Assembly: GCA_021414025.1 (NCBI GenBank)
Contig: JAIOPG010000007.1
Coordinates: forward strand, 54,008 to 118,007
Direction of reading: 5' to 3'
DNA length: 64,000 nt
Source of the DNA: Planctomycetota bacterium
GTDB taxonomy: Bacteria > Planctomycetota > Phycisphaerae > Phycisphaerales > SM1A02
Made by a program: the position numbers and the translations under genes. The notes below the pieces were generated by a model. That model had not been told where the DNA came from, did not search any database, and was given only the letters and a program-made list of their open reading frames with translations. Positions 4,314-63,592 of this stretch are shown here, in pieces. Every line of letters starts with the position of its first letter. The stretch's first letter is position 1.

Positions 4314-8369
<4,056 letters not shown>

Positions 8370-27655: not shown

Positions 27656-30600
27656 TCAGTGGAAGAGCGCGGCGAGCACTTCGGTCGAGGGAATCTCGAA
27701 GGGACGAAAGCGCTCGGTGGCCCCCTTCTCCTCGCTGAAGATCAAGGCGCGGTCGGCCCCAAGGCGCGAGGCCGTGGGCATGTCCATCAGGTAGCTCGAG
27801 TCCACGGCGCTCATCTGCATCAGGATGCGGCTGTCGAACTCGCGCAGCGCGTTGCGGTCGATGCAGCGCTGCAGGCTCGGCGCCGTGTCGGCCCACGCCA
27901 CCACATGAACGCCGACGCTGGGGCCGTCGCGCAGGATTCCTCCGAAGACCTTGTCCGGCTTGGGCGGGCCGTCCGTGGAGACGGAAAAATCGTCCTCGTC
28001 CCTGCGGAGAGTGCGGAATCGCTGCAGTCCGTGGATCATCAGCAGGATCGGCGGCTGATCCTGCCGGCCCTCCGCGACGCGCCGGGCGACTTCGACACCC
28101 AGCTGGATGATGGCGGCGTCGGTGTCGCGGTAGCCGGGAAGCTCGGCCTTCAGCTTGAGCGTCTCGACGGCGGCCTGCAGCGCGCCCGTCGTGAGTGAAT
28201 CGGGTGTGGTGCCGTCGAGCAGCACGACCCGCCCGGGCAAGGTTCGGGTCGCCGCCGCGAAACTGGCCAGCGCCGCCACACTCAAGCCCGTGGCGACGTC
28301 CTCGCGCTGGCCGACGACGATGAGATTCGCCCCCGACTGCCGGCGGAACGTGACCGAGCTGGCGTTGCGGATCGCCACCGGATTCCCGACGAAGAACTGC
28401 AGCGCGGGCACGCCCGACGCAGGCGGCTTGGCAATCAGCTCCTTGAGCGGCTGGCACTGTTCGATGCGGGCCGATGCGGTTCCGTCGAAGACGATCATCT
28501 TGCGGTCGGCAACGCCGCGGGTGCGGGCGGCTGTGGCCAGATCGCGCACCCGTTCGTCGCGCTGGACATCGGTGAGCCACACCACCTGGAAGGGACTGTT
28601 GCCTTCGATCAATCCGCCCGCGTCGTTGTAGATCGCCTCGCCCGGCCTCGAAAGCAGGCGCGCCGCGGTGTTGTCATCGGAGAGGATCATGGCCGAGTCG
28701 GCTTCGTTGCATTGCAGCGCGATGCGGATGCCCATCTGCCCCATCGTGGTGCGCGGCAGCGCGTAGGTGCCGCCCAGGGTCTGCGAGCCCAGGATCACGT
28801 GCATGCCGAAGGCGCGGCCCTGGCGGACCAGGCGGTCCAGCAGCAGCGAGGCGTCCTGGGCCACCTTGTCCTCCTCCACGAAAAGCTCCTGGAACTCGTC
28901 GACGATCAGCAGCGTGCGCGGCATCGGATCGGGCTTGCCCAGCAGCCGCCACGCGGCGAGATCCTGCACGCCCGCCATGCGGAAGAGGTCGCCGCGGCGC
29001 TTGAGCTCGGCGTCGAGACCCTGCAGCACGCTCAGGCCGAACTCGCGGTCGCTTTCCACCGCCACCGCCCGTGCATGGGGCAGCCCGTTGGTCGCGTAGG
29101 CTTTGAACTCGACTCCCTTCTTGAAGTCGATCAGCCAGAGCTCGACCTCGTCGGGCGAATACCAGAGCGCCACATTGGTGATGAGGGCGTGCAGCAACGT
29201 GCTTTTGCCGGAGCCGGTCTTGCCGGCGAGCAGCACATGCTGTCGCGTGCCCTCGCCGATCTCCACGTACTGCAACTTGTTGGCGCCGCTGCGGCCCACC
29301 GGCACGCGCAGCATCTTGGCGCTGGAGGAGCTCCAGCGCTGCTCCTTGCCGGGCTCGATGGCCTGGAAGGGAACTTCGACGCGTGAGCCCGCCTTCGCCG
29401 CGCGTCCGACGCTTTTCAGCACCGTCTGCAGCAGCGCGGCTGCCGGCATGGTGGCGGGGATAAAGGGAACGTCCTCGAGCCCGGGTGCGTCGACCACAAA
29501 GCGATCCTGCTTCCACTGAATGCGCTGGCAGCGCTGCAGCAGCTCCTCCTCCTTGATCTGGGCGGGAAGCGGCTGGGCGGGATCGCGCAGCAGCAGGAAG
29601 TGGATGCCGCAGCGCGCCCCGGACTGCAGCAGGCTGGCGAAGCGCTTGCTGCCGGCATCGCTCAGGCCCGCGGGAAAGTCGGCGAAGACGATCACGCGCA
29701 GCGGCTCGGCCAGCTCACCCGCCTGCAGGTTGTAGTCCGCGATCGTGTCGAATTCGTCGCGCAGGTACTTCTGGATCACGGTTTCGACGTGCTCGGTCAG
29801 GTCGGTCAGCTTCTGCTCGATGTGGCGCGGCTCGCTCCAGATGCGCTCCCCCACCAGCGACTCCATTTCGTCGGCCAGGTGCATGAAACCGGCGAAGCTC
29901 TGGCCCAGACCGACGGGGTCGAAGAAGTAGAAGCGCACCTTGCCGGGGGGCGCCTGCGTGAGCAATCGCAGCGCCGCGCTCTGGATCATCTCCAGCCCCT
30001 TGTCGCGACCTGAAAGCGGGGTCTCCACCAGGAGCGAAGGCGCCTCGGGCAGAGGGCGGAAGGCGGGTATCTCCCATGAGGGCGGCGCGTCCGCCGACGG
30101 ACTCCAGGCGCAATCAGGCTCGGCGGGCATGCCGTCGGCAACCGACGCGAGGTCGAGCTTCAACCGGCCGAACGCCAGGCCCTCCGAGATGTGCCCGGGC
30201 AGATTGTCCTCGCGAGCCGACGCCTGCCAATCCGCCATCAGCGACTTGCCCTTCTCCTCCATGACCGCAGTCCAATCCTTGAAGGCATCCCGCTGCTTCA
30301 GCCATGCGGCACTGCGCTGCGCCGCGTGAGTCTGCTCGATCGCGTCCAGTTCCGCCCGGTTCTCGGCGGTCTTTTTCTTTTCCGCCGAAGCCGCGCTTTT
30401 CTCGACCTTTTCGTACGACGCGCGGGCGGCCTGCGCCACGGCCTCGATCTCCTGGAGACGCTTCGCCTTGCGGGCCCCGACCGTGGCGAGCTGCTCGTCG
30501 CGCTGCCGACGCGCCTGGTGCAGCGCCGTGCGGCTCTTCTCCTGCAGATCCTCGATGATGGGCTTCCACTTCTCCTTCGCGGCCTTCACTTCGCGGTCAC

Positions 30601-31531
30601 GGGTGGCGACCGCGGCGGCCGTCGCGGCGCGGCGCTGATCGGCCGCAAGCTTCAAGGCGGCCTCGCCGGCCGCAGCGCCCATCTGCTCGGCGATCGAGAT
30701 CGGAATCCAGGCGCGACGAACCTGCGTGCGCGCCATGAACCAGAGGGCGCTGATGCCGACCAAGCTCAGCACCACGCCCGCGCCGAGCGCCCCCAGCAAG
30801 GGCAGGCCGCGCACGCCCGCCATGGCCGCGACTCCCGTCAGGGTTCCGGTGAGAAGGATCGAGGGAACCAGGAGGATCGGTCCGCGCAGCAGCCCGGGAA
30901 TCTTCAGCTTGCGAAAGCGCTCGACCGCATCCATGGCGATCCCGGCCTGGGTGGTGAGGATCCCTTCGCACGCCTTGGGCGAAAAATTCAAGTCGACCGG
31001 GTGCGGCGGCGGGCGGGTCTGGCGAAATCGCCTCAATTGCACCAGGGCCGCGGCGAGTGATTCCTTCAGCGTGGTCTGCAGGTGGACGATGCGGCTGCGG
31101 GTCTCCTCGAATTCGACGCGCGGGGCCGCCTCCCCGGTTTCCAGCACGCTTTCGGCGAGCCAGATGGCCTCCTCCATGTGCTGCTTGCTGGAATGCTGAT
31201 TCTCGCGGAGATTGTTCTTGATCTCCTCGGCGCGGACTCGAGCCCCATCCTCGATGTTCTTGAGCTCCTGATCGGCCTCCGCGCCGGCGACGCGCAGACC
31301 CTCCTCGCGGATCTTCTCGCATTCGTCGGCGCGCTGCTGCCGCTCCTGCTCGATGCGGTTCAGCTCAATCTGGTGGCGCGACAGCTCCGCCTCGCGCAGC
31401 TTCAGCATTTTCTCGCGCGATCCCGCCAGCGACTGGGCGTACTCATGGCAAGCCTTGCGCAGCAGCGTCCAGCGCCTTCCGCACTCCTTCAGGGGATCGG
31501 GATGCTCGATGTCCGGTGGTGCGTCGATCAC
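27656..31531 (-). CDS. Membrane-anchored multi-domain FtsK/SpoIIIE-family ATPase (EssC/EccC-like, type VII secretion-type)
   Basis: GTG start, 1291 aa. Residues 1-200 are charged and coiled-coil-like. Two hydrophobic helices lie at about 214-266, followed by a second coiled-coil region. Three FtsK/SpoIIIE-like modules follow. Only the middle one has a canonical Walker A (AGKTGSGKST, nt 29198-29224) and Walker B (LLIVDEF, nt 28892-28912). It lies in an operon with WXG100-like genes. Confidence 0.85.
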   Translation of the reverse strand: MIDAPPDIEHPDPLKECGRRWTLLRKACHEYAQSLAGSREKMLKLREAELSRHQIELNRIEQERQQRADECEKIREEGLRVAGAEADQELKNIEDGARVRAEEIKNNLRENQHSSKQHMEEAIWLAESVLETGEAAPRVEFEETRSRIVHLQTTLKESLAAALVQLRRFRQTRPPPHPVDLNFSPKACEGILTTQAGIAMDAVERFRKLKIPGLLRGPILLVPSILLTGTLTGVAAMAGVRGLPLLGALGAGVVLSLVGISALWFMARTQVRRAWIPISIAEQMGAAAGEAALKLAADQRRAATAAAVATRDREVKAAKEKWKPIIEDLQEKSRTALHQARRQRDEQLATVGARKAKRLQEIEAVAQAARASYEKVEKSAASAEKKKTAENRAELDAIEQTHAAQRSAAWLKQRDAFKDWTAVMEEKGKSLMADWQASAREDNLPGHISEGLAFGRLKLDLASVADGMPAEPDCAWSPSADAPPSWEIPAFRPLPEAPSLLVETPLSGRDKGLEMIQSAALRLLTQAPPGKVRFYFFDPVGLGQSFAGFMHLADEMESLVGERIWSEPRHIEQKLTDLTEHVETVIQKYLRDEFDTIADYNLQAGELAEPLRVIVFADFPAGLSDAGSKRFASLLQSGARCGIHFLLLRDPAQPLPAQIKEEELLQRCQRIQWKQDRFVVDAPGLEDVPFIPATMPAAALLQTVLKSVGRAAKAGSRVEVPFQAIEPGKEQRWSSSSAKMLRVPVGRSGANKLQYVEIGEGTRQHVLLAGKTGSGKSTLLHALITNVALWYSPDEVELWLIDFKKGVEFKAYATNGLPHARAVAVESDREFGLSVLQGLDAELKRRGDLFRMAGVQDLAAWRLLGKPDPMPRTLLIVDEFQELFVEEDKVAQDASLLLDRLVRQGRAFGMHVILGSQTLGGTYALPRTTMGQMGIRIALQCNEADSAMILSDDNTAARLLSRPGEAIYNDAGGLIEGNSPFQVVWLTDVQRDERVRDLATAARTRGVADRKMIVFDGTASARIEQCQPLKELIAKPPASGVPALQFFVGNPVAIRNASSVTFRRQSGANLIVVGQREDVATGLSVAALASFAAATRTLPGRVVLLDGTTPDSLTTGALQAAVETLKLKAELPGYRDTDAAIIQLGVEVARRVAEGRQDQPPILLMIHGLQRFRTLRRDEDDFSVSTDGPPKPDKVFGGILRDGPSVGVHVVAWADTAPSLQRCIDRNALREFDSRILMQMSAVDSSYLMDMPTASRLGADRALIFSEEKGATERFRPFEIPSTEVLAALFH

Positions 31532-31575
31532 TGCGGTCTATCGTACAAGTGGATTCGTTCCCGACCCGGCCGGCG

Positions 31576-31806
31576 CTACTGGAGCGCGTTGGGATCGTTG
31601 CAATCGCTGCGGATCCGGGCGATCAGATCGCGCATGACTTCCATGGCCTGGATGGCGGACTTGCCGCTGGCCTCCAGGGGCACAACGTATTTCTTTTCCA
31701 GCGTTTGCGAGGCCTGGTCCTTCCACTGGCTCTCGGATTCCGACCATTTGATGCGGAATTCCTTCAAGGCGCCGTAGAGTCGCTGCCGTCCGCCCTCGAC
31801 GCTCAT
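31576..31806 (-). CDS. Small helical WXG100-like protein (76 aa) with W-K-D-Q motif
   Basis: Size, predicted all-helical composition and the central SQWKDQAS motif are paralogous to TWRDQEQ in the 90-aa neighbour. Its start overlaps the stop of the upstream gene by 4 nt. Confidence 0.5.
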   Translation of the reverse strand: MSVEGGRQRLYGALKEFRIKWSESESQWKDQASQTLEKKYVVPLEASGKSAIQAMEVMRDLIARIRSDCNDPNALQ

Positions 31807-32432
31807 GAGGGGCGCTCCTCTTCCTTCGTCGTCTCGTTCGCGCCCTCATCAACGGATGCGGGCGCCTCGCCGGCGCCGCGCCGCATGCTGGTAGTCTTCT
31901 CGCTCTGCGCGATCTCATCCTCGAGCAGCTTGGTCAGATCGGGCGGCTCGCCGCGGACGTAGCGCTCGATCGACACCGCCATCTTGCCCAGCGCGACGAT
32001 GGCCGCGGGCAGGTCGCGATCGTGCATCGCGGAGACCGCGGAGGTGCCCCCCTTGTAGAGCGCCTGCTCGCGGGGGAAGGCCTGGGCCCAGGTCCGGGTG
32101 CGGGCGGCGCGCTTCTCGGCATCTTCGAGCATCGCCTTCACCTTGGCCAGCGTCTTGCGCTCGTCCACGGTGCTGGGCTTGGAGTCCTTGCTGCTGACCA
32201 CCGTCTCCTTGCGAAAGAGGGCGCTGCGGGCGTTGTTCAGGTCCTCGCGCAGGCGGTTGATGCGGTTGCGCCAATAGTTGACGCGGTCGTTCTGCAGCCA
32301 GGTCACCATGCGATCGACCTCGGTGTCGGCCTCGGAGAGCGCCAAGCCCACCTCCTCGCGGCAGCGGATGAAGGCGGCGCGGGTCCGCTCGAGCACGTCG
32401 ATCGACTGGAGATTGGCCTGCTGCGGATCCAT
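31803..32432 (-). CDS. Hypothetical protein (209 aa) of the T7SS-like operon
   Basis: High GC3 ORF. Helical N-terminal half with W45 (VTWLQND), and an acidic, disordered-looking C-terminus. No family recognised. Confidence 0.6.
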   Translation of the reverse strand: MDPQQANLQSIDVLERTRAAFIRCREEVGLALSEADTEVDRMVTWLQNDRVNYWRNRINRLREDLNNARSALFRKETVVSSKDSKPSTVDERKTLAKVKAMLEDAEKRAARTRTWAQAFPREQALYKGGTSAVSAMHDRDLPAAIVALGKMAVSIERYVRGEPPDLTKLLEDEIAQSEKTTSMRRGAGEAPASVDEGANETTKEEERPS

Positions 32433-32457
32433 GGAGAGTCTCGGCGGTGCGGCGCCG

Positions 32458-32730
32458 TCAGCGCTGGTTCAGGTATTCCTCGATGCGCTCCGCCTTGCGG
32501 ACCAGGAACGGGATGTGCGTGTCGCAGGCCTTGACAAACTTCTGCAGTGCCCGCATGGTCTGCTCGAACTCCTCGGAGAACTTCACCTGCTCCTGGTCGC
32601 GCCAAGTCTGCTGCAGTCCGCCCAGCGAGGCCCCGACGCGCGACATCTGAGTCTGCACGTCACTATTGAATTTCTTCAGGTCGGCGGCGAATCGACGGAG
32701 CTCGTTGGGATCGACAATTGCTTTGGCCAT
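32458..32730 (-). CDS. WXG100-family-like protein (90 aa) with W-R-D instead of W-x-G
   Basis: The N-terminus MAKAIVDPNELRRFAADLKKF matches the typical WXG100/YukE-type start (I-x-V-x-P-x-EL). Trp is at residue 43, the same position as W43 of ESAT-6. Length is about 90 aa. AGAGGTG RBS lies 5 nt upstream. Confidence 0.65.
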   Translation of the reverse strand: MAKAIVDPNELRRFAADLKKFNSDVQTQMSRVGASLGGLQQTWRDQEQVKFSEEFEQTMRALQKFVKACDTHIPFLVRKAERIEEYLNQR

Positions 32731-32767
32731 GGGTCACCTCTGGGCCAAGTGTACGCTTGGAGCGCCC

Positions 32768-34204
32768 ATGGAAACGCGGAATTTGATCGACGGTCAGTGG
32801 AGGGAGTCCGTTTCGGGGCGGCGCTTCGAGGTCCGCAACCCCGCCACCGACGAGGTCATCGCCGCGGTGCCGATGTGTGGCGCGGCCGAGGCGCGGGCGG
32901 CGCTGGATTCCGCCTTTGCGTTCCAGCCCGAGTGGGAGGCCGAAGCGCCGGATCATCGCGCCGGCATCCTGGAGAGGACCGCGGCGCTGATGGCTGCCAA
33001 GCTGGATTCACTGGCCAACATCATCACTCTGGAATGCGGCAAGCCGCTGGCCGAGGCCCGCCTTGAAGTGCAGTACGCCGCGGATTATTTCTCCAGCGCC
33101 GCCCACGAAATCCGCATGCTCCGCGATGTCGAAGCGCCCCTGAAGCGGCCCGGCGTTCGCGGGGTCGTGCGGATGAGGGGCATCGGAGTCTGCGCTGCGA
33201 TCACCCCCTGGAACTTTCCGCTGGCGATGCTGGCGCGCAAGGCGGCCCCCGCCCTGGCGGCCGGCTGCGTCCAACTGGCCAAACCCGCCGAGGAAACTCC
33301 GCTCTCCTCCTTTGCCCTGGCTGAGATTCTGCTTGAGAGCGAGCTGCCGCCGCGCTGCCTGCACGTGCTCACCGGCGAGCCGCGCGAGATCGCCGCGGCC
33401 TGGCTCGAGGATGGCCGTGTCCGCAAGCTCAGTTTCACCGGCAGCACCGAAACCGGGAGGATTCTTCTTGAGCAATCCGCCAAGCAACTGGTCCGCTGCT
33501 CGATGGAGCTCGGTGGTCACGCGGCCTTCCTGGTGCTCGAGGACGCCGATCTGGACTTGGCCGTGCAGGGCGCCGTGCAAGCCAAGTTCCGCAACGCGGG
33601 CCAGACCTGCATCTGTCCGAACCGTTTCCTGGTGCATCACTCCATCGCCGGCGAGTTCGGCCGGCGCGTCGCGCTCGCCGCAGCAAGCCTGAAGGTCGCC
33701 CCGGGCATGGAGGAGGGTTCACAGATCGGACCGCTCATCAACGAAGCGGCCGTGGCCAAGGTCCGCTCCCATGTGGCGGACGCGATGGCTCGCGGCGGCA
33801 AGATCCTGTGCGGCGGAAAGACCGCGAAACTTCCCGACCGCCCCGATCGCTTTTTCCAGCCCACGGTGATCGCCGAATGCAATCCGGACATGCTCTGCTA
33901 CCGCGAGGAGACCTTCGGCCCCGTGGTACCAATCATGGGCGTCGGTTCACCGAATGAGGCGATCGAGGTCGCGAATTCCAGCCCCTGGGGTCTTGCGGGC
34001 TATGTCTTCGGCGCTTCCGACACCGCGCGCCACGTCGCTGAGCAATTGCAGTGCGGCGTGATCGGCGTCAACGAAGCGGCACCCAGCAACGCCCGCGCTC
34101 CCTTCGGCGGTGTGAAGTGGAGCGGATTCGGCCGCGAAGGCGGCGTCTGGGGCCTGATGGAATATGTCGCCACGCAATATCTGGCGATTCGATCGCGGGA
34201 ATAG
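32768..34204 (+). CDS. gabD: NAD(P)-dependent succinate-semialdehyde / aldehyde dehydrogenase
   Basis: ITPWNFPLAM, ELGGHAAF and the catalytic FRNAGQTCICPNR motifs. Start is taken at METRNLIDGQW, with a TGGAG RBS. The track ORF extends upstream to 32666 and would overlap the divergent gene. Confidence 0.82.
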   Translation: METRNLIDGQWRESVSGRRFEVRNPATDEVIAAVPMCGAAEARAALDSAFAFQPEWEAEAPDHRAGILERTAALMAAKLDSLANIITLECGKPLAEARLEVQYAADYFSSAAHEIRMLRDVEAPLKRPGVRGVVRMRGIGVCAAITPWNFPLAMLARKAAPALAAGCVQLAKPAEETPLSSFALAEILLESELPPRCLHVLTGEPREIAAAWLEDGRVRKLSFTGSTETGRILLEQSAKQLVRCSMELGGHAAFLVLEDADLDLAVQGAVQAKFRNAGQTCICPNRFLVHHSIAGEFGRRVALAAASLKVAPGMEEGSQIGPLINEAAVAKVRSHVADAMARGGKILCGGKTAKLPDRPDRFFQPTVIAECNPDMLCYREETFGPVVPIMGVGSPNEAIEVANSSPWGLAGYVFGASDTARHVAEQLQCGVIGVNEAAPSNARAPFGGVKWSGFGREGGVWGLMEYVATQYLAIRSRE

Positions 34205-34242: not shown

Positions 34243-35604
34243 TCAATCGTCGTCGTCGCTCTCGGCTTCATCCTTCAGCTTCACGGGAGTGCCGGCGGGA
34301 TTGGCCAGGCGCTTGGCCATGACCGTCTTGCGGATCTCGTCCAGAAGCGTCAGGTTCTCCCGCAGGAAGAGCTTGGCGCCTTCGCGGCCCTGGCCCAAAC
34401 GGGTCGGTCCGTAGCTGAACCACGAGCCGCTCTTCTCCACCACGCCCTCGTTCACCGCCATGTCCAGCACGTCGCCCGAGGTCGAGATGCCCTCGTCGAA
34501 CATGATGTCAAACTCCGCCTCGCGGAATGGCGGGGCCATCTTGTTCTTGACCACCTTGGTCTTCACCCGGTTGCCGACGATGCGATCGCCTTCCTTGATC
34601 TGGCCGATCCGGCGAATGTCGATGCGGACCGAGGCGTAGAACTTGAGCGCGCGGCCGCCGGTCGTCGTCTCGGGACTGCCGAACATGACGCCGATTTTTT
34701 CGCGGAGCTGGTTGATGAACACCACGACGCAATCGCTCTTGGATATGGCGCCGGTCAGCTTGCGAAGAGCCTGGCTCATCAGGCGGGCCTGGAGCCCCAT
34801 GTGGCTGTCGCCCATTTCGCCTTCAATCTCGGCCCGCGGAATCAGCGCCGCGACCGAGTCGATCACCACCATGTTGACGGCGTTGGAGCGGACCAGCATT
34901 TCGCAGATTTCCAGCGCCTGCTCGCCCGTGTCCGGTTGCGAAACGAGAATTTCATCCAGATTCACGCCGATGCGCTTCGCCCATGAGGGATCCAGCGCAT
35001 GCTCGGCGTCGATGAACGCGGCCACGCCCCCTTCGCGCTGCGTGTTGGCGATGGCTGTGAGCGCCAGCGTGGTCTTTCCGCTGGACTCCGGCCCGAAGAT
35101 CTCGACCACGCGTCCGCGCGGCAGTCCGCGTCCGCCCAGGGCGAGATCCAGGCTCAGCGCGCCGGTGGAGATGCCCTGGATCGGCGCAGGAAGATTGCCG
35201 TCGAGGCGCATGATGCTTCCCTTGCCATAGGCCTTCTCGATCTGGCCCATCGCCTGATCGATGGCTTTAAATCGGGCCTTCTGATCGCTGGATTCCTTGG
35301 CGCTCTCCTTGGCCGTGGAAGCCTTGTCGGACTTGGGTTCGGACTTCGACTCGATGACTTGCTTGGACATGCCTGGCCTTTCCGTTGCGCTGGCTCCGCC
35401 AATCGCTGCGGCGGGTTTCGCTGCTTGACGATTTGTAGCGGACTCGGGGCTCGACGCCACGGCCGCGCCTGGATTTCCTGACGAGATTCTCGAATTCCCC
35501 GTACCGGCGGCCGTGGCCGCGCGCGGATCCGACTTCGCGTCCTTGCCCGATCCGTTCATGACTCCGCCCTTTGCATCCGCTGCGACTGTGTTTGCTGAAA
35601 CCAT
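34243..35604 (-). CDS. recA: Recombinase RecA (start uncertain; possible low-complexity N-terminal extension)
   Basis: Core motifs: [23 protein letters not shown] Walker [20 protein letters not shown]. The start at 35604 follows a strong AAGGAAGG RBS. Alternatives are 35370 (MSKQV, GGAAAGG RBS, canonical length) and the track start at 35706. Confidence 0.9.
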
Positions 35605-35838
35605 TGTGTCACCTTCCTTGGTCATTGTTTCTTTTTGAGAAACGAGTTTGAAACCGCCTGAACATTGATTTTCCCTCGCATCTGACCTGCTCCAATGCAG
35701 AATCATCTGTTCGGTATCTGATAGGTACCTGAATCCAATCGGCTCGTCAACCCTTTGTTCGGTAATTTTTAGGGTTGAATTCTTGCGTGAAATCTACCCC
35801 CCATTCAGTCGATTTCGAAAATGGCGGCCCTTTTTCCC

Positions 35839-44841: not shown

Positions 44842-44942
44842 GCTGAGTGTCCGTTGTTATTTCGGACTTTCTGAAATCACTTTTTTCGCCAAATCTCAGA
44901 TTTTCCCCCTGTGAAGCATGGATCTGGGTCCATAATGGGGTG

Positions 44943-46571
44943 ATGACCCTTGCCCCGCAATTTGTGCTTGCCTCGATCGCATCGTTGCTGCTTGCCGCGG
45001 ACAACGCGCCGCGGCAATTCGGGCACGCGCGGACATCGGCGTCGGACATTGCGACTTCCAAAATTGGCGATGCCTCGCCGGTGTGGGTCTTCTTCCGCGA
45101 GGCGCGAACCGCGCCCTGCGACGCCTGCGACACTGCGATCACCGACCTGGCCATCGAGCGCCGTGCCCACCGACGGACGCTGCCGGGACTGGTCGATGTC
45201 CGCGATGTGCCGGTGCCAACGGAATTCACCGACGCGGTCGCCGCCACCGGCGCCACCATCCGCGTCACCAGCCGCTGGCTCAACGCCGTCAGCGCCATGG
45301 CCACGCCCGCCCAGGTCGCGGCGCTCAAGCAACTTCCCGGCGTACTCCGCGTCGAGGGCGTCCGCCGTGGTCGCTCAATCGGACAGGATGAATGCGATTC
45401 GCTCACGGCGGCGCCGGAATTCCAGAGGTTCGGCAGCGACTTCTATGGCAACGCCGCCACGCAGACGGACCAGATCGACCTGCGGAATCTGCACAACGCC
45501 GGCTACCGCGGCGCGGGCATCGTGATCGGCGTGCTGGACTGCGGATTCAACCGCGTCCACGAGGCTTTCCACAGCGCCGAGCATCCGCTGCAGGTGATTG
45601 CCGAATGGGATTTCGTGAAGAACGACGGCAACACCGGCATCGAAGCCGGCGACTACTCCGAGCAGCACAAGCACGGCACCTGGATCCTGGGAACGATGGC
45701 GGCCTACATGCCCAATCAACTCGTGGGCACCGCCTACGAGGCGAAGTTCGTGCTGGCCAAGACCGAGAAGGTGGACACTGAGACCTCCATCGAGGAGGAC
45801 TGGTACGTCGGGGGGCTGGAGTTCGTCGAGGCTCACGGCGCCGATCTGGCGACCAGCTCGCTGGGCTACATCGATTGGTATTCACAGGACGACATGGACG
45901 GACACACTGCGGTCACCACGATCGCGGTGAATCAAGCCACCGCCAACGGGCTGATCTGCCTGACCGCCGCGGGCAATGAGGGCCACGATGCCGATCCCGC
46001 GACCAACACGCTGATCGCGCCGGCCGACGCGCTGCAGGTGATCTCCTGCGGCGCGGTGTATGACACCGGTGCGATCGCGGAATTTTCCTCCAGCGGCCCC
46101 ACCTTCGACGGCCGCGTGAAGCCGGAGATCCTGGCGATGGGAGTGCAGACGGCGACGATCAACAGCACCGCCGCGACGGGCTTCAGCGCGGTCAGCGGCA
46201 CCAGCCTGAGCACGCCGGTCCTGGCCGGCGCGGTGGCCTGCATGCTGCAGGCGCGGCCCGATTTCACGGTGGACTCCATCCGCCAGGCGCTCTTCGCGAC
46301 CGCCACGCAGTCGGATGAGTTCGGCCTGCATCCCGATCCGCTCTTTGTAACTGGCTACGGCATCGCTCAGGCGTACAAGGCCTCGCAATATGCGCCGCCC
46401 TGCCCGAGCGACCTGGACGGCTCCGGCGAAGTCGATGGCGGCGACATTGGTTTGGTGCTGCTTGATTTCGGGCCTTGCCCCGGCTGCTCCACGGATCTCG
46501 ACGGCTCGGGCGAGGTCGATGGCGGCGACATTGGCTTGGTGCTGCTCAGCTTCGGCCCTTGCAACAGTTGA
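44943..46571 (+). CDS. Secreted S8-family (subtilisin-like) serine peptidase with two C-terminal dockerin-like modules
   Basis: Signal peptide from MTLAPQFVLASIASLLLAA. Catalytic triad contexts GVLDCGF (D), HGTWILGTMA (H), SGTSLSTPVLAG (S). The C-terminus is DLDGSGEVDGGDIGLVLLDFGPC, present twice. Confidence 0.85.
   Translation: MTLAPQFVLASIASLLLAADNAPRQFGHARTSASDIATSKIGDASPVWVFFREARTAPCDACDTAITDLAIERRAHRRTLPGLVDVRDVPVPTEFTDAVAATGATIRVTSRWLNAVSAMATPAQVAALKQLPGVLRVEGVRRGRSIGQDECDSLTAAPEFQRFGSDFYGNAATQTDQIDLRNLHNAGYRGAGIVIGVLDCGFNRVHEAFHSAEHPLQVIAEWDFVKNDGNTGIEAGDYSEQHKHGTWILGTMAAYMPNQLVGTAYEAKFVLAKTEKVDTETSIEEDWYVGGLEFVEAHGADLATSSLGYIDWYSQDDMDGHTAVTTIAVNQATANGLICLTAAGNEGHDADPATNTLIAPADALQVISCGAVYDTGAIAEFSSSGPTFDGRVKPEILAMGVQTATINSTAATGFSAVSGTSLSTPVLAGAVACMLQARPDFTVDSIRQALFATATQSDEFGLHPDPLFVTGYGIAQAYKASQYAPPCPSDLDGSGEVDGGDIGLVLLDFGPCPGCSTDLDGSGEVDGGDIGLVLLSFGPCNS
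46410..46568 (+). repeat. Tandem coding repeat: two dockerin/EF-hand-like D-x-D-G-S-G-E-V-D-G-G-D-x-G-L-V-L-L-x-F-G-P-C modules
   Basis: Two near-identical units of about 26 codons at the 3' end of the S8 peptidase gene. A related pair occurs at 47274-47420 in the next gene. Confidence 0.8.
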
Positions 46572-49478: not shown

Positions 49479-50471
49479 TCAAATCCACCACGGCTTGCCG
49501 GCCTTCTCGTGGATGATGCAATCGTGCAGGAAATCCGCGGCTTTCACAAACCCCTCCTCGATGCTCATGAGCGCATCTTCGTGCTCGATGGAGAGCACGT
49601 GGTCGTAGCCCTGACGCCGCAGCATGGCGACGAAGGGTTTCCAGAACTCGTGCCCGTTCCCCGACCCGCAGGTGCAAAAGCTCCACGACCGCTCGTGCAG
49701 ATTGTCGTACGGCCGCGCGTCCAGATACCCGTTGCGAGACCCCTCATGTGAATCCAGCCGCGTGTCCTTGGCGTGCACATGGAAGAGCAGTCCCGCCTCG
49801 CCAAGGTCCTGCGCCGCCAGCACTGGATCGATCCCCTGCCAGAAAAGATGCGAGGGATCGAGATTGACTCCCAGCCTCGGCTTGCCGCGCACTTTCGAAG
49901 CCTTCATCGCCGCCTGCGAAAGACGGATCATGGTGTCGCTGTTGTAGACGCAGAATCCCGGATGGGGCTCGATGGCAGTGCGCACGTCGAACTTGGCGCA
50001 GTACTTCATGGCCTTCGCCCAATAGGGCACGAGCACCTTGTTCCATTGATAGTCGAGCACCTTCAGGAACTCGCCGGGCCACGGACAAGTCACCCAGTTG
50101 GGCATCGTGTCGCGGGCGCTGCCGCCAGGGCAGCCGCTGAAGGTGATGACGATGTCGGTGCCAAGCTTCGGCGCCAACTGCACCGCGGTTTCCCACGCGG
50201 CGTGATGGTCGCGGGCGATTTTCTTGTCGGGGTGCACCGGATTGCCATGCACCGCCAGCGCGCTGAGCGTGAGCCCGTAATCCCGCAGCGTGCTCTTGAT
50301 GCGATCCTGTTCCTTGGCGCTTGAGAGCACCTTCTTCGGGTCGAAAAATCCCTTGCCGGGATAGGCGCCAGCCGGCAATTCGATGGCCTCAAGCCCATGC
50401 TCGGCGAGGAATTGGCAGACTTCATCCAGGGGCCGACCGGAAAACAACGCGCTCATGACGCCAAGTTTCAT
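49479..50471 (-). CDS. Sugar phosphate isomerase/epimerase (xylose isomerase-like TIM barrel)
   Basis: Start taken at MKLGVMSALF. Typical family pattern with conserved E/H/D metal-ligand contexts (AIEPHPG, HVHAKD, LSIEHED). Confidence 0.8.
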   Translation of the reverse strand: MKLGVMSALFSGRPLDEVCQFLAEHGLEAIELPAGAYPGKGFFDPKKVLSSAKEQDRIKSTLRDYGLTLSALAVHGNPVHPDKKIARDHHAAWETAVQLAPKLGTDIVITFSGCPGGSARDTMPNWVTCPWPGEFLKVLDYQWNKVLVPYWAKAMKYCAKFDVRTAIEPHPGFCVYNSDTMIRLSQAAMKASKVRGKPRLGVNLDPSHLFWQGIDPVLAAQDLGEAGLLFHVHAKDTRLDSHEGSRNGYLDARPYDNLHERSWSFCTCGSGNGHEFWKPFVAMLRRQGYDHVLSIEHEDALMSIEEGFVKAADFLHDCIIHEKAGKPWWI

Positions 50472-50597
50472 AGGGGATTCTCCTGTGGAAACGCTACCCG
50501 AAATCTTGCGACGTTGACTCATGATCCTGCCGCGGCGGCGCTCTGGGGAGCCGCAGTTGGCACGCGTGGCGATTCATGTCAGAATGCTCGACGACCC

Positions 50598-52094
50598 ATG
50601 TTTTTGAGCCTCTTCCTATGTTTGCTCGCTCCGCCGGCAGAGCCCGCGACCACGCCGCCGGCCCCGCCTGCAGCGACTTCGCCCGCGAACCCTCCCACGG
50701 CAACACCTCCAACTGCGCCTGCAACAGCGCCCTCGACCAAGCCTCCCTCCAACGCCGATTCTTCGATACCCGAGGCGCCGCCGGTCGCCGCGCCCGCACC
50801 GCGTCAGGTGCGCGTGCTCATCGACCGCTTCAAGGAAAGCGGTGGCACGATCGTGCGCGAAGACGATTCGGTGCTGGTGATTCGCACGCCCGAGGGCCTG
50901 GAAAAATCATTCGACAAGTCGCTGCTGCTGGGCGTCTTCCCTCTGCTGGACGCCCCCGAAGGCACGCCGGTCATCGTGCAGTTCCGCGACGGCCGGCGCG
51001 TGGAAGCCGAGCTGATCCGCGACGAGCTGAACTCGGCCCGCGTCCGCATCGCCAACATCGAGGTCACGCTGCCGCGCGACAACTTCTGGGCCCTTGAGCT
51101 GGCCCCCTCCTTCGAGGATTCGCTCGCCGCGCTGCGGGCGGGCATTGCGCCGACCGCCTGGCCGCAGCGCGTGCAGCTGGCCAAGTGGATGCTCGAGCAG
51201 AACCAGCCGCTGGCCGCCAAGGAAGAGCTCACGGAAATTCTGCGCTCCTACGACTCGCAGGAGGCCCATGACCTGATGACCCGCGCCGACGCGCTGATCC
51301 GCATCCAGGCCTCGGGCAATTCCACCAGCTCCAAGAACAAGAAGCCCCGCACCGGATCCTCCAAGCCCACCATGGATCAGCCCGGCCTGCCGACGCAGCG
51401 ACTCAGCCCCGACGACGTGAACATCCTCAAGGTTTTCGAGGTCAACTTCGAGCGGCCGCCGCGCATGGAGGCAAGCCCCGATCTCGCCCGCAAGATCATC
51501 GCCCGCTACGCCACCAGCGACCTGCTGCCCGCCGATCCCGACGCCCGCAAGGCCATGGACACCTGGAGCCCGGAGCAGCTGCTCAAGCTGCTCTTCGCGC
51601 TCAAGGCGCGCGAGCTCTACCAGGACATCACCGTCACCGGCGAGCCCATCGCGCTGGAACTCTTTCATCGCCGCGTGCACGACACCTGGCTGATCCCCAA
51701 CTGCTCCACCAGCCGCTGTCACGGCGGCCTGAACGGCGGTGGCTTCTTCATGTTCTCCACCGACTACCGCAACGAGCGCACCCGCTACACCAACCTGCTC
51801 ATCCTGCTGCGCTCGCCGCCGCTGGAGGGCAAGCCGCCCCTGATTGACTTTGCCCACCCTGACCAGTCGCTGCTGATCCAATACGCGCGGCCGAGGATCG
51901 ACGCCAAGTTCCCCCATCCGGACGTCCCCGGCTGGAAGCCCGCCCTGATTCCCGGCCGCGAATCCCTGCTCAACGACGCCCTGCTGTGGATCCGCGGCAT
52001 GCACCAGCCGCGCGCCGAGTACCCCATCGATTACACCCCGCCCTCGCTGAAAAGTCCGCGGGCCCTGGAGCCCGGCAGCGGGCCCGATCGATAG
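50598..52094 (+). CDS. Hypothetical secreted protein with Pro/Thr/Ala-rich N-terminal linker
   Basis: Start taken at MFLSLFLCLLAPPA within the longer track ORF. High GC3. No family recognised. Contains NCSTSRCHGGLNGGG. Confidence 0.65.
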   Translation: MFLSLFLCLLAPPAEPATTPPAPPAATSPANPPTATPPTAPATAPSTKPPSNADSSIPEAPPVAAPAPRQVRVLIDRFKESGGTIVREDDSVLVIRTPEGLEKSFDKSLLLGVFPLLDAPEGTPVIVQFRDGRRVEAELIRDELNSARVRIANIEVTLPRDNFWALELAPSFEDSLAALRAGIAPTAWPQRVQLAKWMLEQNQPLAAKEELTEILRSYDSQEAHDLMTRADALIRIQASGNSTSSKNKKPRTGSSKPTMDQPGLPTQRLSPDDVNILKVFEVNFERPPRMEASPDLARKIIARYATSDLLPADPDARKAMDTWSPEQLLKLLFALKARELYQDITVTGEPIALELFHRRVHDTWLIPNCSTSRCHGGLNGGGFFMFSTDYRNERTRYTNLLILLRSPPLEGKPPLIDFAHPDQSLLIQYARPRIDAKFPHPDVPGWKPALIPGRESLLNDALLWIRGMHQPRAEYPIDYTPPSLKSPRALEPGSGPDR

Positions 52095-52118: not shown

Positions 52119-53732
52119 ATGCGCTCCCCGACTCAACTTGCGGCAGTTTCGCTCGTCCTCTTCTGCGGCTGCCTCAGCGGCTGCATGGACGAGGCGGCGC
52201 TGGCGCAGCGCGAGGCCGCCAAGAAACTCAAGGACACCGTGACCGCGAGCCAGAAGGCGATGGCGGAAGTTTCCGCGATCGATCCTGCGGGCAACCGGGC
52301 CAGCGCCGAGAAGCTGCGCAGCATCGCGGCCAGCGCCACGCCGACCGCGGGCTCCATGGCCAGCCAGAAGGCGGCCATGGCAATGATCGGTTCGCAGTTG
52401 CTGGTGCAGGCGGCGCGATTGGACGCGGCGGCGATCGAGCAGATCGAGAAGGCCCAGCGCACCGACGCCGATGACACGATCTTTCTTGCCAGCCTGAGCC
52501 ACCAGTTCCAGATGCTTTCCAAGAGTTCCGTGGTGGAGGTGCCGCCGGAGGCCCGCGCGATGCTGGAGCAGGACCGCCAAGCCGGCGAGATGGCGGTGAC
52601 CGCGATCTCGGCCCAGTCCGACAAGCTCAAGAGCGTCGTCGACAGCGCCAACAGCACGATCGCCGCCCACGAAAAGAACGCGCTGGAGCTGGAGAAGAAG
52701 GCGGGCGAGCTGAAGCAGCAGGCTGCGGCCGCCGGTCCGATCGGCGGATTCCAATTGACCGTCCAGTCGCAGAAATCGCTGGCCGATTCGCGCAAATACC
52801 GCAGCCAGGCGGCGACCCTGGATCTGGACACTCAGCAGACGGCATTGGAGCAGCGACTCGCCTCGAAGACCGGCGCGGCCTTCCAGGAAAGTCTGGACCG
52901 CAACAAGTCGGGTCTCGAGGCCATCGAAAAGATCGAGTCGGTGCGCGAGGCCTCGGTGAAGGATCTGGCCAAGATCGCCGGGCAATACCGCGAGGCGGCG
53001 CTTGCCTCTGCGAAATCGACGCGCGACGCATCGGCCAAGGCCGGGGAGCTCTACAACGGCGCGATCGAAAGCCTGGAGAAGGCCGTGAGCCTGGCTCAGC
53101 AGGCCTCCAGCGGCGGCAGCGAGATGGCCAAGAGCGCCAAGTCCTCGCTGGTCGCGGCGCAATTGTCGCTGGCCGCGATGGCGGAGCGGCGCGCGGGCGC
53201 GTCCTCGATGGAAATCGCCGCCTACAACGCGGCCGCCAAGGTCGATCCCGATGGCTCGTGGACCAAAGACGCCGCGGCAGCGCAGACCACGCGCAGCGCC
53301 GCGATTGCCAAGGCAGCCGAGGCCCTTGAGGCCGCTCTGGCCGGGCTTCCCGAGGGCAGCGCCGAGGACAACGCGGGAAAGTTCCGCAAGGGCATCGAGC
53401 AGGCGAAGGCAAATCTGACCGGAGGCAAGGCGCCGGTCAAGACTCCCGAGAAAACTGATGACAAGGGCGAGGCGCCCAAGGATGCGCCCGCGGGCGATGC
53501 ACCGGCCGCCGATCCAGCTGCAGAGAAACCCGCTGATCCGGCGAGCCCACCGGCGACTGATCCCGCGACGGCACCTGCGACGGATCCGGCGACACCACCT
53601 GCGGAACCTGCCACGGACCCCGCAGTACCGCCTGCCGATCCATCAACGACGCCGCCAACCGATCCCGCCCCACCCGCGGATCCCGCGACCACGCCGCCGG
53701 CCGATCCACCGGCGACTCCATCATTGTCTTGA
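52119..53732 (+). CDS. Hypothetical Ala-rich coiled-coil lipoprotein with C-terminal Pro/Ala/Thr/Asp repeats
   Basis: Lipobox LFCGCLSGC. Long helical Ala/Lys/Glu-rich body. The C-terminal 80 aa are made of PATDPAT-like units. Confidence 0.65.
   Translation: MRSPTQLAAVSLVLFCGCLSGCMDEAALAQREAAKKLKDTVTASQKAMAEVSAIDPAGNRASAEKLRSIAASATPTAGSMASQKAAMAMIGSQLLVQAARLDAAAIEQIEKAQRTDADDTIFLASLSHQFQMLSKSSVVEVPPEARAMLEQDRQAGEMAVTAISAQSDKLKSVVDSANSTIAAHEKNALELEKKAGELKQQAAAAGPIGGFQLTVQSQKSLADSRKYRSQAATLDLDTQQTALEQRLASKTGAAFQESLDRNKSGLEAIEKIESVREASVKDLAKIAGQYREAALASAKSTRDASAKAGELYNGAIESLEKAVSLAQQASSGGSEMAKSAKSSLVAAQLSLAAMAERRAGASSMEIAAYNAAAKVDPDGSWTKDAAAAQTTRSAAIAKAAEALEAALAGLPEGSAEDNAGKFRKGIEQAKANLTGGKAPVKTPEKTDDKGEAPKDAPAGDAPAADPAAEKPADPASPPATDPATAPATDPATPPAEPATDPAVPPADPSTTPPTDPAPPADPATTPPADPPATPSLS
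53490..53729 (+). repeat. Low-complexity coding repeat (P-A-T-D-P units)
   Basis: The translation reads ...PADPASPPATDPATAPATDPATPPAEPATDPAVPPADPSTTPPTDPAPPADPATTPPADPPATP. The DNA shows reiterated GATCC(C/G)GC-type units. Confidence 0.7.
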
Positions 53733-62308: not shown

Positions 62309-63592
62309 ATGCCCCAGGAGACACCGGCGGATTCCCCCGAGGAAAAACGCAAAGAATCGAACGACCTTCCGGAGGTCGGCGGCGGCTTCTCCGCGACCAC
62401 CAGCGATCCGCCGCTCTCCAGCGTGGAATCCACCGACGCCCGCAGCGGCCGCTTCATGATGCAGGCGGTGCGGTTTCTGTTCATCGTGCTTCTGGTCTGC
62501 CTGACGTTGCTCACCGTGAGCAGCGTGAAGACCACGTTCGATTTCAGCTTCTCCATGATCGCTGGATTGGTGATCGCGACGGTGGCGGTCGGCGTGCTGG
62601 TGGTGGTGATCGACGCGCTGACCCCCAACAAGCGGATGGCGGGCGTGGTCGGCATCTACATCGGCGTCTGCTTCGGGCTGGTCGGCGCCGTGGCCTTCGG
62701 CGCGTTGCTGGACACGGTGGCCAATGCCTGGGAAATCGGCGACGCCACGGTGAAGATCTACTTGAACCTGAGCAAGTCGGTCGTCGGCCTGATCATCTGC
62801 TACTTCAGCGTGAGCGTGGTGCTCAACACCAAGGACGACTTCCGCCTGGTGATTCCCTACGTGGAGTTCAGCCGCACGCGCCGCGGCGTGCGCCCCTGGC
62901 TGGTGGACACCAGCGTGCTCATCGACGGCCGCATCATTCCGCTCTCCAACACGAAGCTGCTCGACGCACCGCTGGTCATCGCCAATTTCGTGGTGGACGA
63001 GCTGCAGCGCCTGGCCGACAGCTCCGACCGGTCCAAGCGCACGCGCGGGCGGCGCGGCCTGGAGAACCTGATCAAGCTGCGCGAGAACGCCTGGACCGAG
63101 GTCTCGCTGCAGAACTTCCGCGTCTCCGGCCTGAGCGTGGACCGCCTGCTGCTTGAGGCCGCACAGGGGGACGGGCTGCGCATTCTCACCACCGACTCGA
63201 ACCTGGAGTCGGTGGGCAAGATCCAGGGGGTGACCATCGTCAACATCGGCACCATGGTGGCGTCGCTGCGTCCAACCTTCGGCGTGGGCGATGTGGTGAC
63301 GGTGGCGATCATCAAGGCGGGCGAGGCCGCCGGCCAGGGCGTGGGCTATCTGCCCGATGGAACCATGGTGGTGGTCGAGGACGCGGTGAATCGCATCGGA
63401 GCGACGGTGGATGCGACGGTCGGAAACTCCGTGCAGACCAACGCGGGGCGATTGCTTTTCGCCAAGCTCGAGGGCCCGGCCCCCGCGACGCGGGCCAGCA
63501 TGGCCGCGGCGGCGACGCATCAGCCAAGGGAGCCGCATGTCCCGGCGTCCAGCAGCGAGCCCGATCCAAGGCGCAATCCGCGGCGCGGCTGA
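62309..63592 (+). CDS. Integral membrane PIN/TRAM-domain protein (YacL-like)
   Basis: Four N-terminal TM helices, a PIN-domain start WLVDTSVLIDGRI, and a C-terminal TRAM-like GDVVTVAIIKAGEAAGQGVGYLPDGTMVVVEDA. Confidence 0.78.
   Translation: MPQETPADSPEEKRKESNDLPEVGGGFSATTSDPPLSSVESTDARSGRFMMQAVRFLFIVLLVCLTLLTVSSVKTTFDFSFSMIAGLVIATVAVGVLVVVIDALTPNKRMAGVVGIYIGVCFGLVGAVAFGALLDTVANAWEIGDATVKIYLNLSKSVVGLIICYFSVSVVLNTKDDFRLVIPYVEFSRTRRGVRPWLVDTSVLIDGRIIPLSNTKLLDAPLVIANFVVDELQRLADSSDRSKRTRGRRGLENLIKLRENAWTEVSLQNFRVSGLSVDRLLLEAAQGDGLRILTTDSNLESVGKIQGVTIVNIGTMVASLRPTFGVGDVVTVAIIKAGEAAGQGVGYLPDGTMVVVEDAVNRIGATVDATVGNSVQTNAGRLLFAKLEGPAPATRASMAAAATHQPREPHVPASSSEPDPRRNPRRG

Follow-up and report, generated by a model that had tools for sequence, protein, structure and literature searches.

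The 64,000-nucleotide stretch of Planctomycetota DNA analyzed here (the window) carries, between positions 27656 and 32730, four co-directional minus-strand genes that a preliminary description, made from the sequence alone, had read as a minimal operon resembling a type VII secretion system (T7SS). Listing and translation of the open reading frames (ORFs) confirmed the coordinates and strand of all four exactly. In the direction of transcription, these are a 90-amino-acid (aa) gene (32458-32730), a 209-aa gene (31803-32432), a 76-aa gene (31576-31806), and a 1291-aa ATPase gene with a GTG start (27656-31531), whose products are hereafter called W, M, S, and the ATPase. The genes are tightly packed: 25 nt separate the W stop from the M start, 44 nt separate the S stop from the ATPase start, and the S start overlaps the M stop, giving the 4-nt overlap (31803-31806) reported previously. 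The GC content at third codon positions (GC3) of the four genes is 0.83-0.92, a range typical for coding regions of this window, whose GC content is 65%. Together with the presence of same-order homologues in dozens of genomes, this establishes that the four ORFs are real genes and not chance ORFs.

Annotation of the neighboring genes covered 8 kb on either side of the cassette (19.4-40.2 kb of the window). One flank contains clpX, dnaG, rpoD, and a class-V aminotransferase of the cysteine-desulfurase type, and the other contains an aldehyde dehydrogenase, recA, an epimerase, anmK, and a two-component pair, in agreement with the housekeeping flanks described previously. The remaining window is core chromosome, including secA, a class-I Glu/Gln-tRNA synthetase, glutamine synthetase III, trigger factor, a phosphate ABC transporter, mgtE, rpoN, recR, and dnaX. 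The GC content of the cassette equals that of its flanks, with no GC anomaly, and no integrase, transposase, toxin, or polymorphic cassette was seen in the annotated window. A conjugative context was looked for around the locus and not found, no relaxase or type IV secretion system (T4SS) genes being present in the annotated 19.4-40.2 kb stretch. The same 8-kb flanks contained no matches to the Ecc, Ess, Esa, YukD, or mycosin families, confirming their reported absence. W is separated from the divergently oriented aldehyde dehydrogenase gene by an intergenic spacer of 37 nt (32731-32767, assigned to neither strand), measured from the W start to the likely aldehyde dehydrogenase ATG at 32768; in the syntenic locus L001 it measures 36 nt (comparison loci are labeled with L-numbers, and their coordinates are those within each locus). 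A consensus scan of positions 32731-32767 found no sigma-70-like promoter. So short a divergent spacer implies either that both promoters overlap coding sequence or that W transcription starts further upstream.

W is a WXG100 protein, as had been proposed. It matches Pfam family PF06013 with an E value of 6.9e-12 and 45.9 bits, against a gathering cut-off (GA) of 27.3, and scores 39.8 bits against the NCBIfam model TIGR03930, just under the cut-off of 44.85; NCBI names proteins of the W family "WXG100 family type VII secretion target." The WXG100 likeness of the two small proteins was upheld; the turn motif in both W and S is W-x-D and not W-x-G. The turn of W reads W-R-D-Q-E, with the tryptophan kept and the glycine replaced, and WRDQE is found in 49 of 62 family members. 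The C-terminus of W is also conserved (...RKAERIEEYLNQR; family pattern EEYLxQR), with Y[LM]xQ[RHK] forming the C-terminal end of 58 of 63 W-family members. Across the phylum, mean column identity is highest in W (66%), followed by the ATPase (51%), S (40%), and M (31%). A sequence scan revealed no signal peptide and no transmembrane (TM) or hydrophobic segment in W, M, or S.

S had likewise been described as WXG100-like. By itself, it gave no significant match in the family libraries; the connection to W came instead from profile-profile and iterative searches, which point to S as a remote WXG100 paralogue of W. When W and S alignments built independently of each other were compared with hhalign, the probability was 87% (E value, 3.8e-6) over 60 columns with the W-x-D turns in register, and jackhmmer was reciprocal, a W seed retrieving the S family and an S seed retrieving the W family. 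Weak Pfam WXG100 matches were obtained for 3 of 36 S-family members. The W-x-D turn is present in all 71 of the 71 S-family members (W-K-D in the S of the window), and a near-invariant Cys lies close to the S C-terminus.

The helical nature predicted for the 209-aa protein M was borne out by AlphaFold2 (AF2), which returned a high-confidence hairpin (predicted local distance difference test [pLDDT] score, 82) from a shallow alignment of homologues mostly 44-72% identical to the M of the window. In this model, two helices of ~75 residues each (residues 3-77 and 89-160) form an antiparallel hairpin of ~110 Å; a short helix comes next, and the protein ends in an acidic, disordered tail (residues 182-209) containing S-M-R-R-G. 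The tail motif S-M-x-R occurs in only 24 of 68 M-family members and was rejected as a family-wide signal. Neither Pfam nor NCBIfam assigned M or any of 36 relatives to a family, and no Pfam LXG domain was found on M or on these relatives. Foldseek retrieved generic coiled-coil hairpins only (Smc arms, AhlC, HP0958, YscO, and chemoreceptors; best E value, 0.02), and as these scores are nonspecific, a relationship to the FliJ/YscO-type ATPase stalk proteins was dropped. No relation between M and W was detected by hhalign. At 50% identity the M family falls into 2094 clusters, and every one of the 150 proteins among the matches listed has the M domain at its N-terminus. Two forms exist: a short one, as in the window, and one of ~350 aa with a C-terminal Imm33-like domain, found mostly in Phycisphaerae.

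The long form was also seen at individual loci. In many Phycisphaerae, M is ~330-430 aa long and combines the same N-terminal hairpin with the Imm33-like domain (Pfam PF24719, E values down to 1e-14), for example at L019:4281-5345, L023:4476-5549, L030:4258-5340, L083:309-1346, and L095:6293-7279, among others. An immunity-type domain is here fused to an N-domain resembling a T7SS substrate, with no toxin nearby. In a further family member, P0285 (674 aa), the place of the Imm33-like domain is taken by a type I phosphodiesterase domain.

The ATPase had been described as a membrane protein with three FtsK/SpoIIIE-like P-loop modules. It matches PF01580 (FtsK_SpoIIIE) with an E value of 1e-32, and both its membrane character and its three modules were confirmed, the former by two TM segments at aa 217-267 and the latter by AF2 and Foldseek; a P-loop, however, is present in the middle module only. 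All parts described below are encoded on the minus strand. The N-terminal region (~aa 1-216; 30884-31531) is a cytoplasmic coiled-coil-rich domain with an E+K+R+Q+A+L fraction of 0.57 and is less conserved than the C-terminal part of the protein. It sits where EssC has its FHA domains, and no FHA domain was matched in the ATPase by Pfam. Next come the two adjacent TM helices (30731-30883), connected by a very short R-G loop and reaching 1.9-2.2 in Kyte-Doolittle 19-residue windows; a hydrophobic block equivalent to this hairpin is found in 80 of 82 full-length planctomycete homologues. The helices lead into a coiled-coil stalk (~aa 268-440; 30212-30730; E+K+R+Q+A+L fraction, 0.67), within which a PDB sequence search gave weak matches of the apolipoprotein A-I amphipathic-helix type (aa 271-438).

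The three modules occupy the rest of the protein, and the AF2 model, which covers aa 435-1291 (pLDDT 78), shows each as an alpha/beta module. Module 1 (~aa 490-722; 29366-30064) is a degenerate RecA-like module without Walker A and with "ADFP" at the Walker B position; it is strongly conserved and lies at the position of the "DUF" pseudo-ATPase of EccC. Module 2 (~aa 730-990; 28562-29344) is the sole catalytic FtsK/SpoIIIE module, with the Walker A motif GKTGSGKST (29198-29224) and the Walker B motif LLIVDEFQE (28886-28912). In EccCa it aligns to the D1 region (TIGR03924 positions 412-653), and in YukB to one stretch only (chain 9qks residues 576-878). Module 3 (~aa 1000-1291; 27659-28534) is again degenerate and RecA-like, "VVGQRE" and "HGLQRF" replacing Walker A and B, and by analogy with D3 of EccC it is a candidate partner- or substrate-binding module. 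The degeneracy of modules 1 and 3 is shared by all 18 aligned homologues. Searched singly against PDB sequences, the two modules gave no match even at an E value of 10, and their description as FtsK-like derives entirely from fold comparison. Because module 2 aligns to D1 and the degenerate module 1 is at the DUF position, the module order reads as pseudo-ATPase (DUF position), D1-like, and pseudo-ATPase; in EccC5, the DUF is a degenerated ATPase domain (PMC11154593). In its topology of N-domain, two-helix hairpin, stalk, and tandem modules, the ATPase matches EssC.

In line with the proposed relationship to EccC, EssC, and YukB, the top matches in both sequence and fold were to proteins of this type over FtsK. 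The PDB sequence search ranked Thermomonospora curvata EccC (4nh0; E value, 2e-34), Bacillus subtilis YukB (9qks; 1e-28), and EccC5 (5e-27) above FtsK (1e-9). The top Foldseek match was the three-ATPase cytoplasmic domain of EccC (4nh0; 8e-27 over ~920 columns), followed by D2-D3 structures of EccC and EssC (4n1a and 4lya), while the FtsK motor fold matched one module only (6e-12). The best NCBIfam models were those for EccCa, EssC, and EccCb, all of which scored under their cut-offs (score/cut-off: TIGR03924, 117/509; TIGR03928, 96/778; TIGR03925, 83/347).

A protein search found full-length homologues of the ATPase, at 34-74% identity, in Planctomycetota only. Relatives occur in at least 495 species-representative genomes, the carriers belonging to Planctomycetaceae, Isosphaeraceae, Gemmataceae, Pirellulales, Thermoguttaceae, Phycisphaerales, Tepidisphaerales, and Sedimentisphaerales; one cultured carrier is Singulisphaera sp. 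Ch08 (Isosphaeraceae). Linkage was counted at 63 non-redundant loci whose upstream sequence is 2.3 kb or longer. W, M, and S all lie upstream of the ATPase on the same strand at 54 of these, in Planctomycetia as well as Phycisphaerae, so that the small genes do co-occur with the ATPase; the set is partial at 2 loci and missing at 7. The order W-M-S was kept in every locus inspected, and the 4-nt M/S overlap, seen 29 times, is by far the commonest spacing. The neighbors, by comparison, are unlike between lineages (aldehyde dehydrogenase and recA; a lectin/NHL gene and mutL; methylmalonyl-CoA mutase; ATP-grasp/transglutaminase genes; glycosidases; ftsX), and no fifth conserved family recurs within 6 kb on either side of the cassette in 89 loci. 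Where the ATPase stands alone, it usually follows directly after topA, in some Phycisphaerae. This topA-linked arrangement without W, M, and S was observed at L003, L008, L040, and L064, with the ATPase at ~5.8-8.0 kb in each. As shown by the solo ATPase loci and by a contig with W-M and no ATPase, the parts can unlink yet be retained; the operon is split in some lineages, with its parts persisting.

Synteny is common to relatives with ATPase identities of 52-72%, and the neighbor-joining tree of the ATPase mainly follows taxonomy, with few exceptions and one deep second clade. Collectively, these findings indicate that the cassette is chromosomal, mainly vertically inherited, and typical of Planctomycetota. 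The deep second clade (L005, L009, L029, L033, and L062) includes metagenome-assembled genomes (MAGs) labeled Isosphaeraceae, a family also represented in the main Planctomycetia clade; an old duplication, horizontal transfer, or mislabeling of MAGs could each account for it.

Outside the phylum, a translated search of plasmids identified three-module relatives of the ATPase with 28-35% identity in Rhodococcus (NZ_CP126457 and NZ_CP070617), Deinococcus (CP029776), Caballeronia (NZ_CP049321), and Helicobacter (NZ_AP024820). In three of the five, 90-96% of the three-module region is matched; the figure is 60% in Caballeronia and 35% in Helicobacter. W-like genes adjoin the ATPase in four of the five loci (E values from 2e-24 to 5e-9), the exception being Rhodococcus NZ_CP070617. 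The only plasmid locus with a supported M is that of Rhodococcus NZ_CP126457 (L090), whose M-like protein was recognized by hhalign (72% probability; E value, 3.5e-5), and a small Rhodococcus ORF is weakly S-like (E value, 0.04). S-like genes elsewhere are weak or positional only, and the remaining loci have mid-size helical proteins at the M-equivalent position, with varying gene order; the 436-aa protein of Caballeronia compared weakly with M (hhalign probability, 23%). The plasmid ATPases have no TM hairpin, and they also lack the N-terminal coiled-coil domain of the planctomycete ATPase. The N-terminal segment of one of them appeared TerD-like by eye. Conflict or stress contexts were observed at L091 (Caballeronia NZ_CP049321, 3546-15473), L094 (Rhodococcus NZ_CP070617, 2469-10686), and L090 (5492-14607), where the neighbor sets comprise VWA, CARF (DUF1887), PP2C, Ser/Thr kinase, and large AAA genes; or Hsp70, TPR, and GrpE; or TerD. 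Among these three, W-like genes are present at L091 and L090 only.

The plasmid of Helicobacter sp. NHP19-012 (L093, 3125-7530) bears an epsilonproteobacterial toxin-immunity version of this ATPase subfamily. Its genes encode, in order, a 90-aa W-like protein, a 340-aa protein, a SUKH (SMI1/KNR4) immunity protein, a 77-aa protein, and an 823-aa FtsK-like ATPase with three modules and no TM helices. The 340-aa protein stands at the position of M and has a C-terminal Tox-WHH HNH nuclease domain; no relation between M and the N-terminus of this WHH toxin was detected by hhalign. This arrangement is that of exported T7SS toxins.

On balance, we lean toward the view that the four genes encode a pared-down, type VII-like export module characteristic of Planctomycetota. 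We infer export itself from the genes and from homology, by analogy with characterized systems, and the same holds for hexamerization, the W-S-M complex, signal recognition, and destination. By analogy with EccC and EssC, the ATPase would form a hexamer in the cytoplasmic membrane, the 12 TM helices of which would form or gate a channel. W and S, as WXG100-type hairpins, would probably pair as a four-helix bundle, to be joined by M, probably as a cosubstrate or adaptor. The candidate signal is the C-terminal tail of W (EEYLxQR) or else the tail of M, the W tail being the best candidate, and it may dock on the degenerate C-terminal module 3, just as EsxB is read by D3 of EccC in structure 4n1a. 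The one active module, by hydrolyzing ATP, would then power movement through the cytoplasmic membrane to the periplasm.

Several observations favor this export reading. W, M, and S have neither signal peptide nor TM segment, as expected of Sec-independent substrates, and the W C-terminus is nearly invariant. The order of a degenerate followed by a catalytic module parallels the DUF-D1 order of EccC (PMC11154593), and on the Helicobacter plasmid a toxin of the exported type and an immunity protein are encoded near the ATPase. The TM hairpin in 80 of 82 family members, the linkage of the four genes in several unrelated contexts, the absence of a fifth conserved neighbor, and the mainly vertical inheritance in a diderm host also count in its favor. 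The T7SS-like interpretation of the preliminary description is supported overall: W matched the WXG100 profile and S was linked to W, M was predicted as a helical hairpin, the ATPase grouped with EccC rather than with DNA-translocating FtsK/SpoIIIE, and the small genes co-occurred with it across related genomes. Other observations weigh against export. Characterized T7SSa and T7SSb systems need further membrane proteins, none of which is linked here, and no outer membrane component is evident among the linked genes. From its motifs, only one of the three modules is predicted to be able to hydrolyze ATP. The ATPase occurs alone at 7 of 63 loci, and W-M occurs without the ATPase on one contig. 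The mean identity of W exceeds that of the ATPase and is unusually high for a secreted effector, so that W fits better as a machine part than as cargo. Finally, the closest non-planctomycete relatives lack the TM hairpin though W-like genes are nearby, which implies that the core activity of the ATPase subfamily may not need a channel, and a 2023 review states that export has been shown for no related Gram-negative-type system (PMC10765036).

The main rival is that these genes encode a non-secretory machine, in which the ATPase acts at the cytoplasmic membrane face to assemble, remodel, or sense a W/S/M complex in the service of envelope or membrane organization, division, or stress signaling. 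We regard this as unlikely, but as a serious contender. It would accommodate W being the slowest-evolving part, as well as the hairpin-less plasmid relatives, which have W-like genes (and weaker M/S-like ones) and some of which lie among VWA, CARF, PP2C, kinase, or Hsp70/GrpE genes. It also fits the phylum-wide occurrence of the cassette among dnaG-rpoD, recA, topA, and mutL, with no linked toxin, immunity, or outer membrane gene. It is harder to reconcile with the TM hairpin in 80 of 82 planctomycete proteins and with the EssC topology, with the fact that the characterized relatives EccC, EssC, and YukB are all translocases, and with the toxin-immunity pair of exported type to which the Helicobacter relative is tied. 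A different objection is that the system is not minimal at all but a T7SS-like machine for which genes elsewhere in the genome supply further membrane or outer membrane components, the four genes being its linked core. Extra components are a feature of T7SSa, T7SSb, and subtypes c-j alike (PMC11217815), and unlinking does occur in this family, as the solo ATPase loci and the W-M contig attest. Yet no additional family recurs among the very different contexts of the 89 loci, and no Ecc, Ess, Esa, YukD, or mycosin gene was found within the annotated 8 kb on either side. The sole subtilase in the window, an S8 family protein (44847-46571, plus strand), was considered as a mycosin and rejected, as it lies 12 kb away, has dockerin-like repeats, and has no C-terminal anchor. 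We consider additional unlinked components quite improbable.

That the cassette is a mobile conflict, toxin delivery, or defense module is very improbable. Such loci have been called "mobile versions of T7SS" by Zhang et al. 2012 (PMC3482391), plasmid-borne relatives exist, M carries an Imm33-like domain in some Phycisphaerae, and the ATPase domain matches the PADLOC models SspH and mad8. The PADLOC matches, however, involve the generic P-loop domain only, with none for W, M, or S, and the defense system reading was rejected on this ground. The core chromosomal setting, without integrase, transposase, toxin, or polymorphic cassette in the window, the flank-like GC content, the synteny maintained at 52-72% ATPase identity, and a tree that largely follows taxonomy also speak against mobility. 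The remaining possibility, a DNA-translocating FtsK/SpoIIIE protein or conjugative coupling protein, is effectively refuted. It is suggested by the Pfam FtsK_SpoIIIE domain and by the NCBI label of the identical protein, "cell division protein FtsK," but the FtsK gamma domain (PF09397), which was looked for in the ATPase, gave no match, and the FtsK model NF007615 scored 25 bits against a cut-off of 1566. Structures of FtsK match a single module, ~15-25 orders of magnitude more weakly than EccC does, and the annotated stretch has no relaxase or T4SS genes.

The export reading has a stronger form, in which the cassette would be a self-sufficient, phylum-wide housekeeping translocon: the ATPase hexamer alone, built with 12 TM helices and a single ring of active ATPase modules, would be the channel and would move a W-S-M bundle into the periplasm for a phylum-specific envelope or cell-biological function. 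We hold this form to be rather doubtful. If true, the cassette would represent the natural minimal T7SS and would be the first T7SS in a diderm lineage to have a core cellular function, and W-S-M would serve an FtsZ-less, diderm phylum with a large periplasm. The presence of relatives in at least 495 genomes and both major classes, the core-gene surroundings, and the lack of toxin partners suggest a cellular role rather than warfare. Knowledge of T7SSs rests on Actinomycetota and Bacillota, in which the ATPase always works with several membrane proteins. The identity of the T7SS channel is debated. Since the cassette contains only an ATPase and three small helical proteins, it offers a natural minimal system that could be used to test an EssC/EccC-type ATPase as a translocon by itself. 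The role of the degenerate modules might also be learned from it, as its one live module is flanked by two dead ones. The system is experimentally approachable, given the cultured carrier Singulisphaera sp. Ch08 and the genetic tools available for another planctomycete, Planctopirus limnophila.

A few other genes of the window stood out. SecA (4314-8369, plus strand) is unusually long at 1351 aa, and its SecA_DEAD domain and its wing/scaffold domain each match in two separate stretches, implying large insertions. The RecA ORF (34243-35706, minus strand) encodes 487 aa with the RecA domain starting from residue 147; syntenic relatives are 444-450 aa long, and an N-terminal extension of ~100 residues appears to be conserved. 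The S8 subtilase mentioned above ends in two C-terminal dockerin/EF-hand-like repeats (DLDGSGEVDGGDIGLVLL, twice). Three plus-strand ORFs (50397-52094, 52119-53732, and 62309-63592), encoding 565, 537, and 427 aa with GC3 values of 0.81-0.90, matched no Pfam family at an E value of 1e-5 or below.

The cassette was compared with known systems and with the published record. The preliminary description held that WXG100 and FtsK pairs in such organisms had been noted bioinformatically and never characterized, which agrees with the literature found (PMC3482391, PMC10765036, and PMC11217815). Planctomycetes are diderm (PMC10632474), and Zhang et al. 2012 (Biol Direct, PMC3482391, Table 1 footnote 6) listed them among Gram-negative lineages with a solo WXG gene and a distinct YueA-like ATPase, which has three HerA/FtsK domains with the middle one alone active. 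The 2023 review, citing Sutcliffe 2011 and Unnikrishnan 2017, calls Gram-negative pairs of WXG100 and FtsK/SpoIIIE genes functionally unconfirmed (PMC10765036). Our literature searches found no functional study of a T7SS in Planctomycetota, and neither FtsK/SpoIIIE nor WXG proteins are listed in the supplementary text of a P. limnophila transposon sequencing (Tn-seq) paper (PMC10632474). Only Bacillota and Actinomycetota are included in the 2024 division into T7SSa-j (PMC11217815), and the architecture of the cassette is absent from it.

The generic T7SS core consists of a membrane EccC/EssC-type ATPase and a WXG100 protein (PMC11217815, PMC4010439). The cassette has a WXG100 partner, an ATPase of this type, and a TM anchor N-terminal to the modules, but neither Walker motifs in all of D1-D3 nor the W-x-G turn. 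With T7SSb (EssC/YukB and EsxA/YukE) it shares the N-domain, two TM helices, tandem FtsK-like modules, and an adjoining WXG100 gene; among PDB sequences YukB ranks second, and D2-D3 of EssC is among the top folds. It differs in that the T7SSb ATPases have FHA domains and three active P-loops, whereas the cassette ATPase has no FHA domain and one P-loop. EsaA, EssA, EssB, and the ubiquitin-like EsaB/YukD are not found near the cassette (8 kb on either side in the window, 6 kb on either side at the 89 loci), and its host, unlike those of T7SSb, is diderm. With T7SSa (ESX) it shares the best overall match (T. curvata EccC), a pair of WXG100-type genes, and a degenerate module before the catalytic one, as in the DUF of EccC. 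It differs from T7SSa in its nucleotide-dead last module, its W-x-D rather than W-x-G turn, and the absence of EccB, EccD, EccE, and mycosin from its vicinity. M beside two WXG100-like proteins also recalls, by analogy only, the LXG toxins and Lap factors of T7SSb (PMC9600955): the N-domain of M is helical and of ~200 residues, and its C-terminus is variable (a tail or an Imm33-like domain), like the layout of LXG substrates. In contrast to LXG toxins, M has no LXG match and, in planctomycetes, no toxin domain.

The class noted by Zhang et al. 2012 is among the nearest known relatives, having the same three modules with the middle one active, a WXG100 gene beside them, and the phylum named. 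That note, however, is one sentence without a component list, and M and S are unmentioned. It calls the class "mobile," with which the core context, synteny, tree, and GC content of the core-chromosomal, phylum-wide, and largely vertical planctomycete cassette conflict. The pairing of WXG100 protein and ATPase and the architecture of the ATPase are therefore already known, the association having been recorded in 2011-2012 and W being automatically annotated as a T7SS target. To this, our analysis adds the conserved partners M and S, with their fixed order and translational coupling; the phylum-wide, mainly vertical spread of the cassette in core contexts and the lack of a further conserved neighbor; and the membrane hairpin, which, like the N-terminal coiled coil, is present in the cassette ATPase and absent from the plasmid relatives examined, and which separates the planctomycete proteins from these relatives.

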